Shown here piece after piece: positions 1 through 52,218 of a stretch of DNA of 52,218 bases (the stretch's first letter is position 1; every line of letters starts with the position of its first letter). The stretch spans positions 1 through 52,218 of the IMG/VR virus record IMGVR_UViG_3300025846_000001; one strand, written 5' to 3'. This DNA is from a virus. Taxonomy: Duplodnaviria; Caudoviricetes. Under the pieces are notes generated by a model, which was not told where the DNA came from, searched no databases, and saw nothing but the letters and a program-made list of their open reading frames with translations. The translations under genes and the position numbers were made by a program.

Positions 1-127
1 AGAAATAAATTGTCTATGACCTTCAGTTCTTTTGACTTGCTCCCATCCAAGCTCTATAAGCAAGTCATTACCCCTCGACCATCCGCCCCACGAACCACAT
101 GCCCAATCATGCCCCTTATACTCTACT
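1..127. repeat. Direct terminal overlap, identical to 52092-52218 (circular assembly)
   Basis: The first 127 nt (agaaataaat...ctctact) recur exactly at 52092-52218. Confidence 0.97.
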
Positions 128-27290: not shown

Positions 27291-28291
27291 CTTATTTCTT
27301 CAATATTACCAACCTGTGCCGTAAATGTTCCACTTGAACAAATCACTGTTAAATTTATATACCAAGTCCCTGATATTGCTATTGCAGGAGTAGTTGGTGC
27401 GGCTATGGTTGTTGGTAGTTGAACTGCCCCGGCATACCCAACTCCTTCAGCTTTAATGGTAGTTGCTGACCGAATAGTTATTAATACGTCAAATCCTGCC
27501 CTTGCATTTGCAGCCTGAGCAGCAGAAGTAACAGCCGTCCAGTCAATAGTATCAGCGATTGTCCCTAAGTTTCCGCATCTTACTTTAAAAATTAATGTAC
27601 CCGTGCTTGATGAATTGCCAATTATCCATACCCGGAATGTTGACCCGACAATAGCCCTCCCTGATGGTATTTGTAACTGAAGTAAAACCTTTTCAGTTGT
27701 ACCAGAAGTAACCACTGGCGCGAGTAAGTTAGTAAATAGTCTAACATCTGGGATGGAGGGTTTATTTGATATATTAGTATTCCAATCAGCTCCGACCGTT
27801 GCGCTTGCAGATGCATGTGCGACCTGAGAATGATCATAAGCAGTCTTGCCCTTGTCGCCATAATACGCATTTGTTGAAAGTTCTCCAAGTGCTAAACTAC
27901 CTCCTCCTGCATGAGTATGCGAGGTTAATTCACCTGTTAATTTCGCTTCAATCTCTGCTTTAGTAATATCTGCATTAATCTGAGCTGTTGCGGGTGCATG
28001 TGTACTTCCTGCATGAGAAACAGCACCATCATAATTTGTCTTTAATGCGGATGTAAGATCATTTGCACTCAATCCCTTGCCAGATTCTTTTGGTTGTAAC
28101 TCGGATAAGTCCTGATTATCGCTACCTGAAGCATGATCTGTAGAATTGGAATGTTTCTTTGTTATCACATCCGCAATAGATGTATCTGCTTTTATTTGAT
28201 CAATTGTCAGTCCTCCTGTTGGCGGATGATCAGTCAGGTAATCAGTAATAGCCACACTTAGATCGAGAGGGTCTTTACTTGCGTAACTCAT
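27287..28291 (-). CDS. Fibre-like virion protein (head or tail fibre)
   Basis: GKGLSANDLT, LGELSTNAYYGDKGKTAYDHSQ and DWNTNISNKP are motifs typical of phage fibres; Ser/Thr-rich. Confidence 0.65.
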   Translation of the reverse strand: MSYASKDPLDLSVAITDYLTDHPPTGGLTIDQIKADTSIADVITKKHSNSTDHASGSDNQDLSELQPKESGKGLSANDLTSALKTNYDGAVSHAGSTHAPATAQINADITKAEIEAKLTGELTSHTHAGGGSLALGELSTNAYYGDKGKTAYDHSQVAHASASATVGADWNTNISNKPSIPDVRLFTNLLAPVVTSGTTEKVLLQLQIPSGRAIVGSTFRVWIIGNSSSTGTLIFKVRCGNLGTIADTIDWTAVTSAAQAANARAGFDVLITIRSATTIKAEGVGYAGAVQLPTTIAAPTTPAIAISGTWYINLTVICSSGTFTAQVGNIEEIR

Positions 28292-30030
28292 TGATTCGGA
28301 TTTTGAAATGGATTAACAACCGGCTCAGGTATTTCCGCTTTCATCAGCTCAATATATTCCTGAGTCTTAAGTTTAACCTTTTCCCTGATTAACTTAAAAT
28401 TCATATTGTAAAGATCAGGCACCTCAAGTTCTATCTCATTAAAGATCGATTCAAGATTAGCCCAGAGAGTGGCATTATATTCTGTTGTTAATCCCTGACT
28501 TATCAAAAGTCTTGTCGTGGCTTCCGGGTAACCTCTAAAGGGATTCATCAAGGATTTAATCTGTATCTTCTTTAAGTCCCCCGGACGGTCCGAGTAAAGG
28601 ATTTCATTTATGTCATCTTCAATAGCTGAAATGGTTGAAGTGGAAGCCCCTGCATCTTTAGCGACCTTCAATTCATTCATCAATTCGACAAGTGATTTGA
28701 ATTTAAAGTCATTAGGGAATTTATGATGAACAATTAATCCCTCGCCTAAATCGGTAAAAGTAGCTATGTCTTGAACTACAAACTCCCAAAGCGAAGAGTA
28801 ATTCCGTGCAAAAGGGTAAAGAGTATCATTCATATTATCCGCTCCGAAATTCTTTTCCGTTGCCGTTACTGCTGTGGCAACTTCTGATCGAGTGGCTATC
28901 TCATTATTGAACATCATAGTATGAACCAAGATACGAAGATCATTGATATAATCTTTATTAAAAGATAGTAACTCAATAGGTGGGGTCTTATAGACTAACA
29001 TCTTTTCAAGGTCAATCATATCAACAGGATTCCTTGGAATGGTAAGCGTGATCACATCCTTTACCCCTGAATGAAGTGGCTGTTGTCCTGTTCCGTTACA
29101 ATTCTTACAAATAGTATGCCCATCAAGAAGAATCCCTGCATTACAGTCTTTATTAGAACACTTATCAACATAGGCAAACCTCTGAGGAAATGCTGTCATT
29201 GCTGTACTTAAATCCAACTCTGAATCAGTTTTCATTAGCTTTTCAAGTAAAAGTATTACCGGATGAAATACTGAAACAAATGTCCGTCCTTTTGTTTCTG
29301 CATCACGAATAAATCCAAACCTTTGAGCTGGCACTTTCTTTGCTCCGGGTTGAAACTCCTGATATTCGTAAAATAGACTATTAATTTCAATCCCCAAAGC
29401 GGCCTGAGTCATCTGGATGGTATCAGGACCTAAGTACATGGTAAACTTAAAACCATCTGTCTTTACTTCGTCACGCATAAACTTAATCGGTAACTTAACG
29501 ATAAGATATTGCAGATTCTCATTCTTAAACTCAAACATTATCGCATCGGTTGACGTTGCAATGAAAGGATAAGGACTGGCCTTCTCTACATTCGGATCAA
29601 AGGAATCAAACTCTGTAATCAAAAAAGCGTTTGGATCAATATAGTTATAATCAATGATAGAATATTCCAGATACTCTTCCAGTGACTTCTCACCCCAGAA
29701 ATGACTAATAAACTCTTCAAGTTCAAGAGTCTTATCACCAGTCTTGTAAATCAATTCTCTCAATAGGGGTGTTTTCCTTAATGCTTTCTGAAACGGAAGC
29801 TGTGTCGAGTTAAGAATCGAAGGAACAACCGACTTTGATATATTCTCACGCTGTTCAAACTCCTCCTTTGTTTCGCGGGTTACTATCTTCTCAAGTAAGT
29901 CGGTTATGTCATCACCGGTTTTCATCTTGTAATATTTATCCGCTAATTCAGTGACTCTTTTATAGTCCTGATGATAAATCTCATCTTTAATTACTTTCTT
30001 CAGTAATTCAAATCCCGTCTCTTTATCCAT
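28288..30030 (-). CDS. Portal protein with a DnaJ-like Zn-finger insertion
   Basis: 580 aa directly after terL; CSNKDCNAG...CKNCNGTG insert. Confidence 0.8.
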   Translation of the reverse strand: MDKETGFELLKKVIKDEIYHQDYKRVTELADKYYKMKTGDDITDLLEKIVTRETKEEFEQRENISKSVVPSILNSTQLPFQKALRKTPLLRELIYKTGDKTLELEEFISHFWGEKSLEEYLEYSIIDYNYIDPNAFLITEFDSFDPNVEKASPYPFIATSTDAIMFEFKNENLQYLIVKLPIKFMRDEVKTDGFKFTMYLGPDTIQMTQAALGIEINSLFYEYQEFQPGAKKVPAQRFGFIRDAETKGRTFVSVFHPVILLLEKLMKTDSELDLSTAMTAFPQRFAYVDKCSNKDCNAGILLDGHTICKNCNGTGQQPLHSGVKDVITLTIPRNPVDMIDLEKMLVYKTPPIELLSFNKDYINDLRILVHTMMFNNEIATRSEVATAVTATEKNFGADNMNDTLYPFARNYSSLWEFVVQDIATFTDLGEGLIVHHKFPNDFKFKSLVELMNELKVAKDAGASTSTISAIEDDINEILYSDRPGDLKKIQIKSLMNPFRGYPEATTRLLISQGLTTEYNATLWANLESIFNEIELEVPDLYNMNFKLIREKVKLKTQEYIELMKAEIPEPVVNPFQNPNQ

Positions 30031-30106
30031 TTCAATTAATATTTATTATTTTCACTCCTATCGTTTTGCATTATCGTAAGTAAGCAAACCTTTTCGCTTA
30101 ATATTA

Positions 30107-32560
30107 TTAACCATTATAATAGTTTTTAAATAATTCGACTAATTGATATTCGCAATTATGTACTAAAATACCATTTGCAAAGTATTCATGTTCTGATTCA
30201 ACTGTAATATCATAGACATTTCTTTTTTCGCCCTCCTTTATTCTCCACACATGCATGAGAACAGAACTTATTTTTACTCCATTTATTAATTGAAAATATA
30301 TTCCCGCATTTTTGACATATTCTATCTTCGTGATATTTCTTCGCAGCTCTGTCTTTTCTTGCTTGATATTTGAGCTGACATTTTCTTGAACAATGTTTTG
30401 GTTTTCTCCTGAGATTAGATTTAAATTCCGTACCGCAATCAATACATTTTGTAATATATTCTTCTGTATATATAAGTTTAGCAGTGTTTTGCTCATGCCA
30501 CTGCTTCCCTGTTTCGGATTTGTGCCACTTAACTGCTTCCGGAATAGCCAATTCGATAAGTTTTTTAGTATTGGCATCTTTATATTCCTTTGATGAGATT
30601 TTGTAATGATGACTGATATGCTTTCCCTGAAGCATAATCTCATAATTTGAAACTTCGTTATTATTAAAATTAGTATCAGAATGATGTACTGAAAAACCCT
30701 TTGGAATAATCCCGACTTCTTTTGTGTATTTGTGAATATGGAGGCTTTTTTTACGCCAGATTCCATTTTCTTTAACCCATCCTTTATAGTAGTTTCTGTC
30801 TGATGCTTTCTTTGCATTTGGGTATCTATGAAACTTAAACCCATCATAAATAATAGTTTGTCTTTCCATGTTTGTTTTTCTTCAAAGATAGCTATAATAT
30901 TCTTATCTATCAATGTTGATACCATAGAAAAACTGCCATTGTCGTATATTTTATGATCAGGCGTGCAAGTTATTTCTTTATCACCTATCCTGTATGTTTC
31001 AACTGCTTTGATACCATTATTTTTTACCGCCGTAATTCGTTTATACCCATTACGTGTTAAAACATTATCACCTACTTTTAAATTCCTGATATATTGAGCG
31101 CCCCTATCAGTACTTATTAAAGTTTCAGCCACGAAACACAAATCCCCAAAATGCCCATATTTCTGATATTTCTCCCCGGAATCTTTATCAGTAACTATAT
31201 GCTTATCTTTACCTCCGTCAAGAGCCTGCTTAGTGTACATCATGTCAGCTATCATCTTTTTACAACTCTCGTCAAAGCAAATCCTGATCGGTAATTTGTT
31301 TTCTAAGATCAGATTAATAAAGTCCCTGCGCTTAACAATAGAAGGATTACTAAATAGCGTTCGATCAGATCCGTTATTTAAGTATCTCCTTAACTTAAAA
31401 TCAATTATCTCATAATGGTGTTTAAAGTCTTTATTCATCGTTGTCCGATTGTGCCCGGAAGCATCACCGTAATAGTAAAGCCCTGAATTATGATTCGGGT
31501 AACGCATCATGAACTCCTCACATACCTCTTCCGTGGAATTACGAGGGTTCTCCAGGGCTATCTCATCAATAAAGATACATTCCCATAAGTCTCCATTACG
31601 TTTAACCTGCGATATGCCACATGAGTTATAAGGTACAGTATTTTGGTCAAAGCTTAAATGAAGCGGAAGTAACGGATCGTATCTGAAATTTCCTACATGA
31701 GTCAATCGATTAAAAGATGAATAAAACTCTCCCCCCGAAACCGCAAAAGGGTTAGCAAATACCAATGCGCGACCTCGTTCCTCTGTATTATTCTGTAAGA
31801 TATTATTAATGTAGTTAATACCTACATTATGAACATTATGATAAGTTGAAGAAATAACAACCTTTTTGTTATTAAACTCCTTTTCAAAAAAGGTTTTATC
31901 GGAATATATTTTAGATGCAATTTCATCTACATGCTGATCTAATTCAAAAAGTAAATTTAGCCAGTCAACGCGGGCCGGCGACGTAAGACAATAAAGCGGA
32001 TTCCATTGCTGGTCTACTCTCCCTGTATGGCTTACCTTGCCATCAACAACGAACATACCGGGTTGACGAAGCCTTGTTATTATAACCTCTTTAACTGCCT
32101 CCTCGCGAGTATCCTTAGTCTCGTCAAGCAGACAAAAACCGAACTCTTTTCCAGAATGACTCATGTAATTTTCAAGTGACCCTGTAAAGATTAATCCCCC
32201 ATTACAGAAGGATATTATATTATTGAATCTATCAAAATTGCGCTTGCATTTAAGCCACTGTGGAGGCGGTTCTTTGCCCGACGCATATGTTCCCGATAGA
32301 TTATCCTTACTCCACTCCGTCACTCCTATACTTGCCCAGTATTCCCGTATCCTAAAGAGCGTGGCTGAGTTAAGTTGATCGAATGTGTTACTAAAGATTG
32401 CACCCCTTACTTCCGGGAACTGGTTGATAAAATTTATCGCAATCATCCCCCCTAAAAATGTTTTTCCGGATCCAGTACCTCCGAGAAATAAGTTATTATT
32501 CGCCGTACTGGAGAGTATAGCCATTTGCGGTTCTGATATTATTTGCTCAATTACTTCCAT
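30107..32560 (-). CDS. terL: Terminase large subunit (intein-containing; 489 aa after splicing)
   Basis: Walker A GGTGSGKT, Walker B LLDE, nuclease SFD and YGDASG; the C-terminal HxxD motif (GHFGDL|CEY) is split by the intein. Confidence 0.93.
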   Translation of the reverse strand: MEVIEQIISEPQMAILSSTANNNLFLGGTGSGKTFLGGMIAINFINQFPEVRGAIFSNTFDQLNSATLFRIREYWASIGVTEWSKDNLSGTYASGKEPPPQWLKCKRNFDRFNNIISFCNGGLIFTGSLENYMSHSGKEFGFCLLDETKDTREEAVKEVIITRLRQPGMFVVDGKVSHTGRVDQQWNPLYCLTSPARVDWLNLLFELDQHVDEIASKIYSDKTFFEKEFNNKKVVISSTYHNVHNVGINYINNILQNNTEERGRALVFANPFAVSGGEFYSSFNRLTHVGNFRYDPLLPLHLSFDQNTVPYNSCGISQVKRNGDLWECIFIDEIALENPRNSTEEVCEEFMMRYPNHNSGLYYYGDASGHNRTTMNKDFKHHYEIIDFKLRRYLNNGSDRTLFSNPSIVKRRDFINLILENKLPIRICFDESCKKMIADMMYTKQALDGGKDKHIVTDKDSGEKYQKYGHFGDLCFVAETLISTDRGAQYIRNLKVGDNVLTRNGYKRITAVKNNGIKAVETYRIGDKEITCTPDHKIYDNGSFSMVSTLIDKNIIAIFEEKQTWKDKLLFMMGLSFIDTQMQRKHQTETTIKDGLKKMESGVKKASIFTNTQKKSGLFQRVFQYIILILILIITKFQIMRLCFRESISVIITKSHQRNIKMPILKNLSNWLFRKQLSGTNPKQGSSGMSKTLLNLYIQKNILQNVLIAVRNLNLISGENQNIVQENVSSNIKQEKTELRRNITKIEYVKNAGIYFQLINGVKISSVLMHVWRIKEGEKRNVYDITVESEHEYFANGILVHNCEYQLVELFKNYYNG
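30155..31138 (-). mobile_element. Class 1 intein, 328 aa (TerL residues 475-802)
   Basis: Block A CFVAETLI, block B TPDH, blocks F/G VYDITVESEHEYFANGILVHN, and a +1 Cys. Confidence 0.95.
30210..30869 (-). CDS. HNH homing endonuclease with two C4 zinc ribbons, encoded in the -1 frame inside the intein
   Basis: VHHSDTNFNNNEVSNY...H motif; CIDCG...CSRKC and CQKCG...CSHAC; A-rich start context. Confidence 0.88.
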   Translation of the reverse strand: MERQTIIYDGFKFHRYPNAKKASDRNYYKGWVKENGIWRKKSLHIHKYTKEVGIIPKGFSVHHSDTNFNNNEVSNYEIMLQGKHISHHYKISSKEYKDANTKKLIELAIPEAVKWHKSETGKQWHEQNTAKLIYTEEYITKCIDCGTEFKSNLRRKPKHCSRKCQLKYQARKDRAAKKYHEDRICQKCGNIFSINKWSKNKFCSHACVENKGGRKKKCL

Positions 32561-52091: not shown

Positions 52092-52218
52092 AGAAATAAA
52101 TTGTCTATGACCTTCAGTTCTTTTGACTTGCTCCCATCCAAGCTCTATAAGCAAGTCATTACCCCTCGACCATCCGCCCCACGAACCACATGCCCAATCA
52201 TGCCCCTTATACTCTACT
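52092..52218. repeat. Direct terminal overlap, identical to 1-127
   Basis: Exact copy of the first 127 nt. Confidence 0.97.

Follow-up and report, generated by a model that had tools for sequence, protein, structure and literature searches.

The gene for the large terminase subunit (TerL) in a phage of ~52 kb from a peat metagenome (IMG/VR record IMGVR_UViG_3300025846_000001) contains an intein in which some 220 codons are open in two reading frames, which raises the question of why both frames have stayed open and what the second one encodes. Unless another locus is named, coordinates are positions in the window, i.e., the whole stretch of 52,218 nt that was analysed, and the features of the locus lie on its minus strand. 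The TerL open reading frame (ORF), intein included, covers 30107-32560 and encodes 817 amino acids (aa); it matches Terminase_6N, Intein_splicing and Hint_2, and tblastn aligns it to phage terminase large subunits. The second ORF (30210-30869) lies in the -1 frame of TerL and encodes a predicted HNH endonuclease of 219 aa. We consider it likely that the two form a composite selfish element in terL, namely an intein with a separately made, out-of-frame HNH homing endonuclease. This layout had been proposed in an original prediction made from the sequence alone, and its coordinates and motifs for the intein, TerL and the HNH ORF were all correct when re-derived.

The N-extein (TerL aa 1-473; 31139-32560), delimited by the ORF and by comparison with intein-less relatives, ends in the nuclease-domain motif KYGHFGDL. 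It is followed by an insert of 328 aa (TerL aa 474-801; 30155-31138) that runs from C1 (codon 31136-31138) through TPDH, the block B motif, to VYDITVESEHEYFANGILVHN; its C-terminal end has the form VYD...VHN, with the final His-Asn at 30155-30160. The C-extein consists of the +1 Cys and 14 further residues (CEYQLVELFKNYYNG) and is closed by the TerL stop codon (30107-30154). The TerL frame has zero stops along the whole insert. When the insert was searched in isolation, Pfam returned Intein_splicing at 38.3 bits (cut-off 35.8) and Hint_2 at 28.8 (cut-off 28.4). C1, T59, H62 and N328 are invariant in 10/10 aligned inteins and H327 in 9/10; C1 is also found in the related loci L001, L002, L013 and L014 described below, and the +1 residue is Cys in 14/14 loci compared. 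An AlphaFold2 (AF2) model is confident for the N-lobe (residues 1-90) and the C-lobe (about 280-328), and the linker (aa 94-279) has a predicted local distance difference test score (pLDDT) of 24-64. For the single-coded N-terminal splicing lobe (intein aa 1-90; 30870-31138) the pLDDT is 77-96, and for the C-terminal splicing lobe with blocks F and G (intein aa 295-328; 30155-30256) it is 84-93. Foldseek matched the model to the mini-inteins gp41-1 (6qaz, E 4e-5), DnaX and DnaB, with E values from 4e-5 to 8e-4. By sequence and model, the insert is a class 1 intein with a HINT splicing domain and is predicted to splice.

The -1 frame is closed until 4 codons 5′ of an ATG at 30869, from which 219 codons follow without a stop as far as a TGA (30210-30212); the bases of this TGA belong to TAT and GAT, two codons of block F. 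The dual-coded stretch thus comprises intein codons 91-310. The third frame over the same bases contains 26 stops. At its 3′ end, the poorly conserved tail of the HNH protein and its stop codon overlap the first ~16 codons of the C-terminal splicing lobe. The HNH protein has five database relatives with 51-82% identity, four of which carry a precomputed PF13392 assignment. H62, H63, N71, N75, H84 and H88, together with C142, C145, C160 and C164 of the first CxxC...CxxxC zinc ribbon, are invariant in 14/14 aligned rows; the His and Asn residues are presumed to have individual catalytic roles. The AF2 model of the protein has a pLDDT of 88, and its top match in the Protein Data Bank was I-HmuI (1u3e) in both searches we made: Foldseek gave E 5.3e-3 with a probability of 0.97, and VIA gave Z 6.5 with a root-mean-square deviation of 3.0 over 79 residues (model residues 7-92) at 16% sequence identity. 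I-PpoI came next at Z 4.7, followed by Cas8-HNH domains. The ribbons resemble YacG and FCS zinc fingers with modest scores (Z 3.4-4.1). I-HmuI, an intron-encoded HNH homing nickase of Bacillus phage SPO1, is likewise built of an N-terminal beta-sheet and an HNH core followed by DNA-binding modules; it differs in being encoded in a group I intron, not an intein, and its C-terminal DNA-binding modules are not known to be zinc ribbons. From sequence and structural model we assign the ORF to the I-HmuI-like HNH (HNH_3) endonucleases, with two zinc ribbons and a predicted nuclease activity.

Two frames open over this length are not expected by chance. The off-frame stop rate, estimated in the +1 frame of 29 long ORFs of the window, is 0.0727 per codon, at which 219 open codons have a probability of about 7e-8. 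When the HNH ORF was resampled synonymously with the codon usage of the window, the TerL frame acquired a mean of 7.7 stops and was stop-free in 0/20000 resamplings. Permuting the codon order of the HNH ORF gave P = 0.00085 for a stop-free TerL frame. These figures agree with the original prediction in that the two open frames exceed chance, which it had taken to imply selection on both.

A pattern scan with the HNH protein confirmed 15 related IMG/VR loci, with 38-65% aa identity. They represent 11 distinct sequences: L007, L008 and L015 share one sequence in this region, and L009 and L010 share another, with L016 a partial copy. At all 15 loci the HNH frame and its +1 (TerL) frame are both open over the match, and the +1 frame lies within an ORF of TerL length. 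Stops in the third frame number 19-32, except in the truncated L016, which has 5. The HNH-frame stops counted in L003 and L006 are the terminators of the ORF itself, and that of L014 is premature. Among GenBank phages searched by tblastn with TerL, the whole intein, including its motif-less middle, aligns to the TerL of Acinetobacter phage Highwayman (OZ038341, L001) and Tetrasphaera phage TJE1 (HQ225832, L002). A homologous HNH ORF in the same -1 register is present in both of these and in Clostridium phage phiCDHM19 (NC_028996, L022) and Rhodobacteraceae phage LS06-2018-MD07 (OP947163, L023). These four nested copies have 0 stops in the +1 (TerL) frame, and the sole annotation over the nested ORF in the four records is terminase large subunit. 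Contigs of prokaryote genomes scanned with the HNH alignment gave 52 pattern matches, none of which was confirmed, so no prophage copy was seen at that sensitivity.

Some of the metagenomic loci depart from the arrangement in the window. In the lineage L011-L014 the intein, here of 299 aa, is inserted three residues earlier in the motif (KYGH|C-TD... as compared with GHFGDL|C in the window), the HNH is without the second zinc ribbon, and a further insertion in TerL matches LAGLIDADG_3 weakly and in frame (E 0.0069). In L007 (also L008 and L015) TerL is interrupted by another intein, which occupies the Walker A site (GGVG|C; L007:2443-3324). It conceals an out-of-frame ORF of 196 codons (L007:2699-3286) with matches to NUMOD4 (E 1.7e-6) and HNH_3 (E 1.3e-9, above the cut-off). 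This ORF is in the +1 frame of TerL and thus differs in register and subfamily from the -1-frame HNH of the window.

Homologues of the HNH protein also occur as free-standing genes. In three phages (Exiguobacterium phage EauM-23, Pseudomonas phage PAE1, Lactobacillus phage CL2) the gene was found 3′ of terL. Salmonella phage Shemara encodes it on the opposite strand, between terL and the portal gene; Brevundimonas phage Poludnitsa (ON529862, L024) has an unannotated copy in the gap between these two genes; and in Acinetobacter phage BP10 it lies 5′ of terS. These six genes have 4-12 stops in the +1 frame, whereas the nested copies have none, which makes them a natural control for the absence of stops. 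When 20 HNH proteins were placed in a maximum-likelihood tree (unrooted), two changes between the nested and free-standing states were required. Five free copies fall on one side (support 80/91), and that of BP10 pairs with the nested copy of Highwayman as its sister (97/92; 51% identity). As the root was not placed, the tree is equally compatible with capture of the HNH by the intein and with its escape. The presence of free-standing kin beside terL in other phages fits a free-standing endonuclease gene having colonised an intein, in line with the original prediction that such a gene could have entered a mini-intein. In EauM-23 (L018:2288-3261) the annotated TerL is short (404 aa), and the free-standing HNH that precedes the portal gene has an unannotated gap on either side, of 213 and 143 nt.

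We calculated dN/dS (the ratio of nonsynonymous to synonymous substitution rates) by the NG86 method for 55 pairs of 11 nested copies, taking HNH-frame values where synonymous sites were unsaturated. The HNH frame gave 0.08-0.43, and the TerL frame over the same bases 0.58-3.67. In the closest pairs the values were 0.08-0.22 versus 2.5-3.7, and the HNH-frame range holds for pairs from 98% down to about 50% nucleotide identity. Codon-position variability gave the same picture. The third position of the TerL codon is the most variable in the extein and in both splicing lobes, and is so again from intein residue 295. Between intein aa 85 and 294, TerL position 2, which is the third position of the HNH codons, is the most variable in 13/14 windows of 15 codons; in the exception, aa 160-174, TerL position 3 is marginally highest. 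Constraint in the HNH frame and stop avoidance alone in the intein frame is the pattern that had been predicted for this locus. On these comparisons of sequence, the intein frame over the HNH is kept merely stop-free and the protein-level constraint is in the HNH frame. Reasoned from the genetic code, this avoidance should be cheap, since a stop in the TerL frame needs an HNH codon ending in TA or TG followed by one starting with A or G, which mostly synonymous choices avoid. A functional in-frame domain in the intein linker was considered and rejected on the pLDDT of 24-64 over aa 94-279 and a dN/dS of about 1. Likewise, the conservation of "MGLNFIDTQ" in the intein frame was found to be the shadow of a conserved "DGFKFHRYP" in the HNH frame.

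The endonuclease could nevertheless be a relic ORF that is no longer expressed, in a mini-intein whose long stop-free spacer persists by vertical descent. A natural knock-out speaks for this. L014 (3104-4000) differs from L013 (4735-5631) by two substitutions in 897 nt, one of which keeps Arg as Arg for the intein but replaces a Ser codon of the HNH frame by a stop. L014 has thus lost the HNH by a nonsense change with TerL open, and the endonuclease can be lost with the terminase intact. The absence of the second zinc ribbon from L011-L013 and P0005 points in the same direction. A relic would, however, not be expected to show the HNH-frame dN/dS given above, down to 0.08-0.22 in the closest pairs, nor the invariance of the catalytic His and Asn residues and of the first zinc ribbon in 14/14 rows, and the copy in the window is intact. 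We therefore find the relic explanation unlikely.

As the original prediction had suggested, we looked for TerL homologues with and without the insertion, which bear on the mobility and dispensability of the element. We compared 29 TerL relatives (61-82% identical), 27 of which include the 3′ end. In 26 of these 27 there is no intein and the site is continuous (e.g., ...KYGHFGDL-IEY...), and the position of the +1 Cys is taken by a non-nucleophilic residue (Ile, Phe, Met, Ala or Leu); the sole carrier is a contig already found with the HNH. No HNH was found within ±3 kb of terL in the 26 intein-less loci, the rest of those genomes being covered by the IMG/VR pattern scan alone. A 191-nt contig from run X1 joins both exteins exactly at the insertion site, at a depth of 3.2 versus 11.2 for the intein-bearing contig. 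It departs from the window exactly at the first codon of the intein (window 31140) and continues, by hand translation, as L-IEYQLVELF. Judged by its sequence, it is an intein-less terL allele in the same community. It differs from the window at 4 of 51 aligned bases and so comes from a related phage and not from the same strain.

The same data bear on the possibility that the HNH protein is a packaging cofactor of the terminase, nested in terL, and not a homing enzyme. HNH proteins adjoining the terminase genes of cos phages are said to act as packaging cofactors, a report attributed to Kala et al. in 2014, and the free-standing homologues found here always lie beside a terS, terL or portal gene. 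The phage HNH functions noted in PMC11855218 also include aiding terminases. However, a packaging factor should be present throughout the phage group, and the HNH is absent from 26/27 loci of close TerL relatives (±3 kb of terL), which have neither intein nor HNH there. In L014 a nonsense codon in the HNH is tolerated, and the HNH_3 type and I-HmuI-like fold are typical of homing nickases. A role in packaging thus appears quite improbable to us.

Candidate start signals for separate synthesis of the endonuclease lie within the coding sequence of the N-lobe. AAGGAG or GGAGG is found 7-8 nt 5′ of the HNH start in L017, phiCDHM19 (L022) and LS06-2018-MD07 (L023), and AAGGTG in Highwayman (L001). 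The clade of the window has an A-rich leader without a Shine-Dalgarno (SD) motif, and an SD-like core precedes only 2/55 ORF starts in the window. In this clade TAnnTTTG is found exactly 21 nt 5′ of the HNH start in 7/7 copies; in the window it is TATCTTTG (30883-30890), a putative Bacteroidota -7 box. The -33 and -7 boxes of Bacteroidota promoters are as a rule spaced by 19-21 nt, and a TTG is found 20 nt further upstream (30911-30913). The TAnnTTTG box is a conserved element of Flavobacterium and Bacteroides promoters (PMC7641319). The host of the phage is probably a Bacteroidota bacterium, as far as can be told from the sequence, and the start signals preceding the HNH ORF would suit the likely hosts of the respective phages. 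The stretch 5′ of the HNH start (intein aa 60-89; 30872-30961) is a candidate expression signal by virtue of its low synonymous-site variation: TerL third-position diversity over the 30 codons 5′ of the ATG is 0.28-0.35, and 0/110 background windows are as low (mean 0.589, minimum 0.413). Since both the window and L005 have the HNH frame closed over this stretch, a non-coding constraint of some kind probably acts on it. Independent synthesis of the HNH from an internal, A-rich start had been part of the original prediction; the A-rich leader and candidate start signals are indeed there, and the HNH would be expressed separately from them. Among the sequencing runs listed for 30000-31300 there was no RNA run, a result that is silent on expression either way.

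Instead of being made separately, the HNH might be reached by a -1 shift near its start and a +1 shift near its end, which would make it an ordinary in-frame endonuclease domain of the intein. There are A-runs at both junctions that could serve for this, GAAAAAC before the ATG and CGAAAAAAG before the stop. On reading the 5′ junction, however, we found no X XXY YYZ heptamer in register. Going 5′ from the ATG, the HNH frame closes after 4 codons; two shifts would be needed, and SD motifs and start codons appropriate to the host precede the ORF in distant lineages. Under frameshifting the TerL frame would not need to be open, yet it is open in every copy. This explanation is therefore very unlikely.

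Logan contigs from two peat-metagenome runs are identical to 30000-31300 with 0 differences and 0 gaps; as these runs may be the source sample, they give weak independent support, and it is the comparative evidence that matters. That two compensating indel errors in the assembly conceal an ordinary in-frame HNH intein has next to no probability, in spite of homopolymer A-runs at both junctions, since the two other assemblies have 0 indels (though possibly from the source sample), an erroneous frame would be expected to carry about 8-16 stops, and the comparison had already refuted it, with the same two-frame layout in 15/15 viral contigs and four GenBank lineages, which answers the concern about indels raised in the original prediction.

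Taken together, the comparisons of sequence give good support to the mechanism originally predicted, which we would describe as follows. A class 1 intein is inserted in the conserved C-terminal nuclease motif of TerL, and the ~220 codons between its splicing lobes would be read in two frames. In the TerL frame they would be an unconstrained, stop-free spacer, translated within the terminase precursor and lost from it, along with the intein, on protein splicing; the spacer must stay open because a stop would truncate an essential terminase. In the -1 frame they would encode a homing endonuclease of free-standing type, with an HNH_3 domain followed by two CxxC...CxxxC zinc ribbons, made by internal initiation at its own ATG, probably from signals within the N-lobe coding sequence. 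The enzyme would nick or cut intein-less terL alleles of co-infecting relatives at the presumed target site. Copying of the intein-bearing allele during repair would then propagate both parts of the element as one.

Several observations weigh against this mechanism or parts of it. Against Pfam HNH_3, the 219-aa ORF gave E 4.8e-5 and 23.3 bits, just below the cut-off of 24.8, and the structural match to I-HmuI is modest (Z 6.5), with low global template-modelling scores. The patchy distribution of the intein is compatible with loss as well as with gain. The only indications of the host phylum are a weak TerL similarity and the lack of SD motifs. TAnnTTTG is missing from the L011-L013 and L017 lineages, and where present it overlaps a conserved Ile-Phe of the intein; its conservation may be at the protein level, and its role as a promoter is for that reason hypothetical.

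A wider proposal is conceivable, which we put forward tentatively and with considerable doubt. Intein and -1-frame HNH together may form a single mobile unit of ancient origin, spread in fixed register through the terminase genes of phages of at least four or five bacterial phyla. Within it the N-lobe coding sequence may have been recruited as promoter and translation-initiation region of the endonuclease, whose timing or level of synthesis could then differ from that of the late terminase gene. The unit may also exchange with free-standing copies adjacent to terL. Out-of-frame endonucleases may likewise be common among long "endonuclease-less" inteins, as the NUMOD4 and HNH_3 ORF in the Walker A intein of L007 supports.

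As to the surroundings of terL, an ORF of 580 aa directly 3′ of it (28288-30030, minus strand) holds a CxxxxC...CxxC cysteine cluster and is, by position, probably the portal gene. The first 127 bases of the window (1-127) are identical to the last (52092-52218). The window has the appearance of a whole phage genome, ~52.1 kb long and either circular or terminally redundant, and related contigs are 50-53 kb long.

The textbook intein is an in-frame fusion of a splicing domain and an endonuclease, and how the endonuclease was acquired is a long-standing question. The element in terL would be a well-populated natural intermediate of the route by which a free-standing endonuclease invades a mini-intein; with 11 distinct metagenomic sequences and four cultured-phage lineages, this model can be tested both comparatively and at the bench. 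It also suggests that a long intein should not be called degenerate for want of a recognisable endonuclease domain until every frame has been translated. The overlap is moreover a clean case of frame-specific selection, with protein-level constraint in one frame and a ban on stops in the other, and it may in addition contain a regulatory signal within coding sequence.

The original prediction knew of no description of such a composite element. In this respect it has been overtaken by two preprints that report inteins with an endonuclease in a separate frame (10.1101/2025.01.02.630785; 10.64898/2026.09.14.751524), both of which cite Gorbalenya 1998 for earlier non-canonical cases. The first describes actinophage inteins, the terminase among their hosts, that encode an endonuclease VII-like enzyme in "reading frame 3 relative to the intein", as well as others with antisense LAGLIDADG or VSR-like endonucleases, and proposes invasion by free-standing endonuclease genes (Gosselin, Arsenault, Gogarten 10.1101/2025.01.02.630785). 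The resemblance to our locus is close: a same-strand ORF in the third (-1) frame between the splicing blocks, an intein frame that is stop-free without a recognisable fold, the terminase large subunit as a host protein, and a proposed origin from free-standing genes. The enzyme differs, being endonuclease VII-like (IPR004211) there and HNH_3 or I-HmuI-like with two zinc ribbons here. The carriers differ as well, since ours lie outside the actinophages save for TJE1, which the main text of that preprint omits; the comparison is with this main text, and the clusters may overlap. The second preprint describes a cyanobacterial intein in dnaX whose LAGLIDADG endonuclease is encoded out of frame (Phillips, DeSimone, Gogarten 10.64898/2026.09.14.751524). 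There, too, the endonuclease occupies another frame (the +2 ORF), omega is low in the endonuclease frame and raised in the host frame, and the distribution is sporadic with co-existing intein-free alleles; the host gene is cellular and the enzyme LAGLIDADG, as opposed to phage terL and HNH.

Two further systems share parts of the layout. An out-of-frame HNH with zinc fingers, reported like the two preprints by the Gogarten laboratory, is found inside a phage methylase without an intein (PMC11855218). At about 195 aa, with flanking zinc fingers, in the third frame of a stop-free host gene and with a disjunct distribution, it is similar to the HNH described here, and its route of translation is left open in that account. 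It differs in that the methylase has no detectable splicing domain and the in-frame product stays, whereas in TerL a complete intein should remove the spacer. In fractured genes, a free-standing endonuclease gene lies between the halves of a split intein (Dassa et al. 2009, PMC2677866). These, too, are inteins that a free-standing endonuclease gene, equipped with expression signals of its own, has entered, but their host gene is split into two ORFs whose products are trans-spliced; TerL is a single continuous ORF of 817 codons, and the host gene is likewise one ORF in all related loci. Our literature search found no report of an HNH_3-type out-of-frame endonuclease in a terminase intein, preprint supplements and subscription journals being outside its scope, and no paper linking an intein with TJE1. 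By the main texts of the two preprints, the endonucleases reported for this layout are endonuclease VII-like or LAGLIDADG, and the one in terL is HNH_3 or I-HmuI-like. We conclude that the layout is of a known kind, and that what is new here is the family to which the enzyme belongs, the occurrence far outside actinophages, the ties to free-standing copies adjacent to terL and the candidate start signals embedded in the intein.

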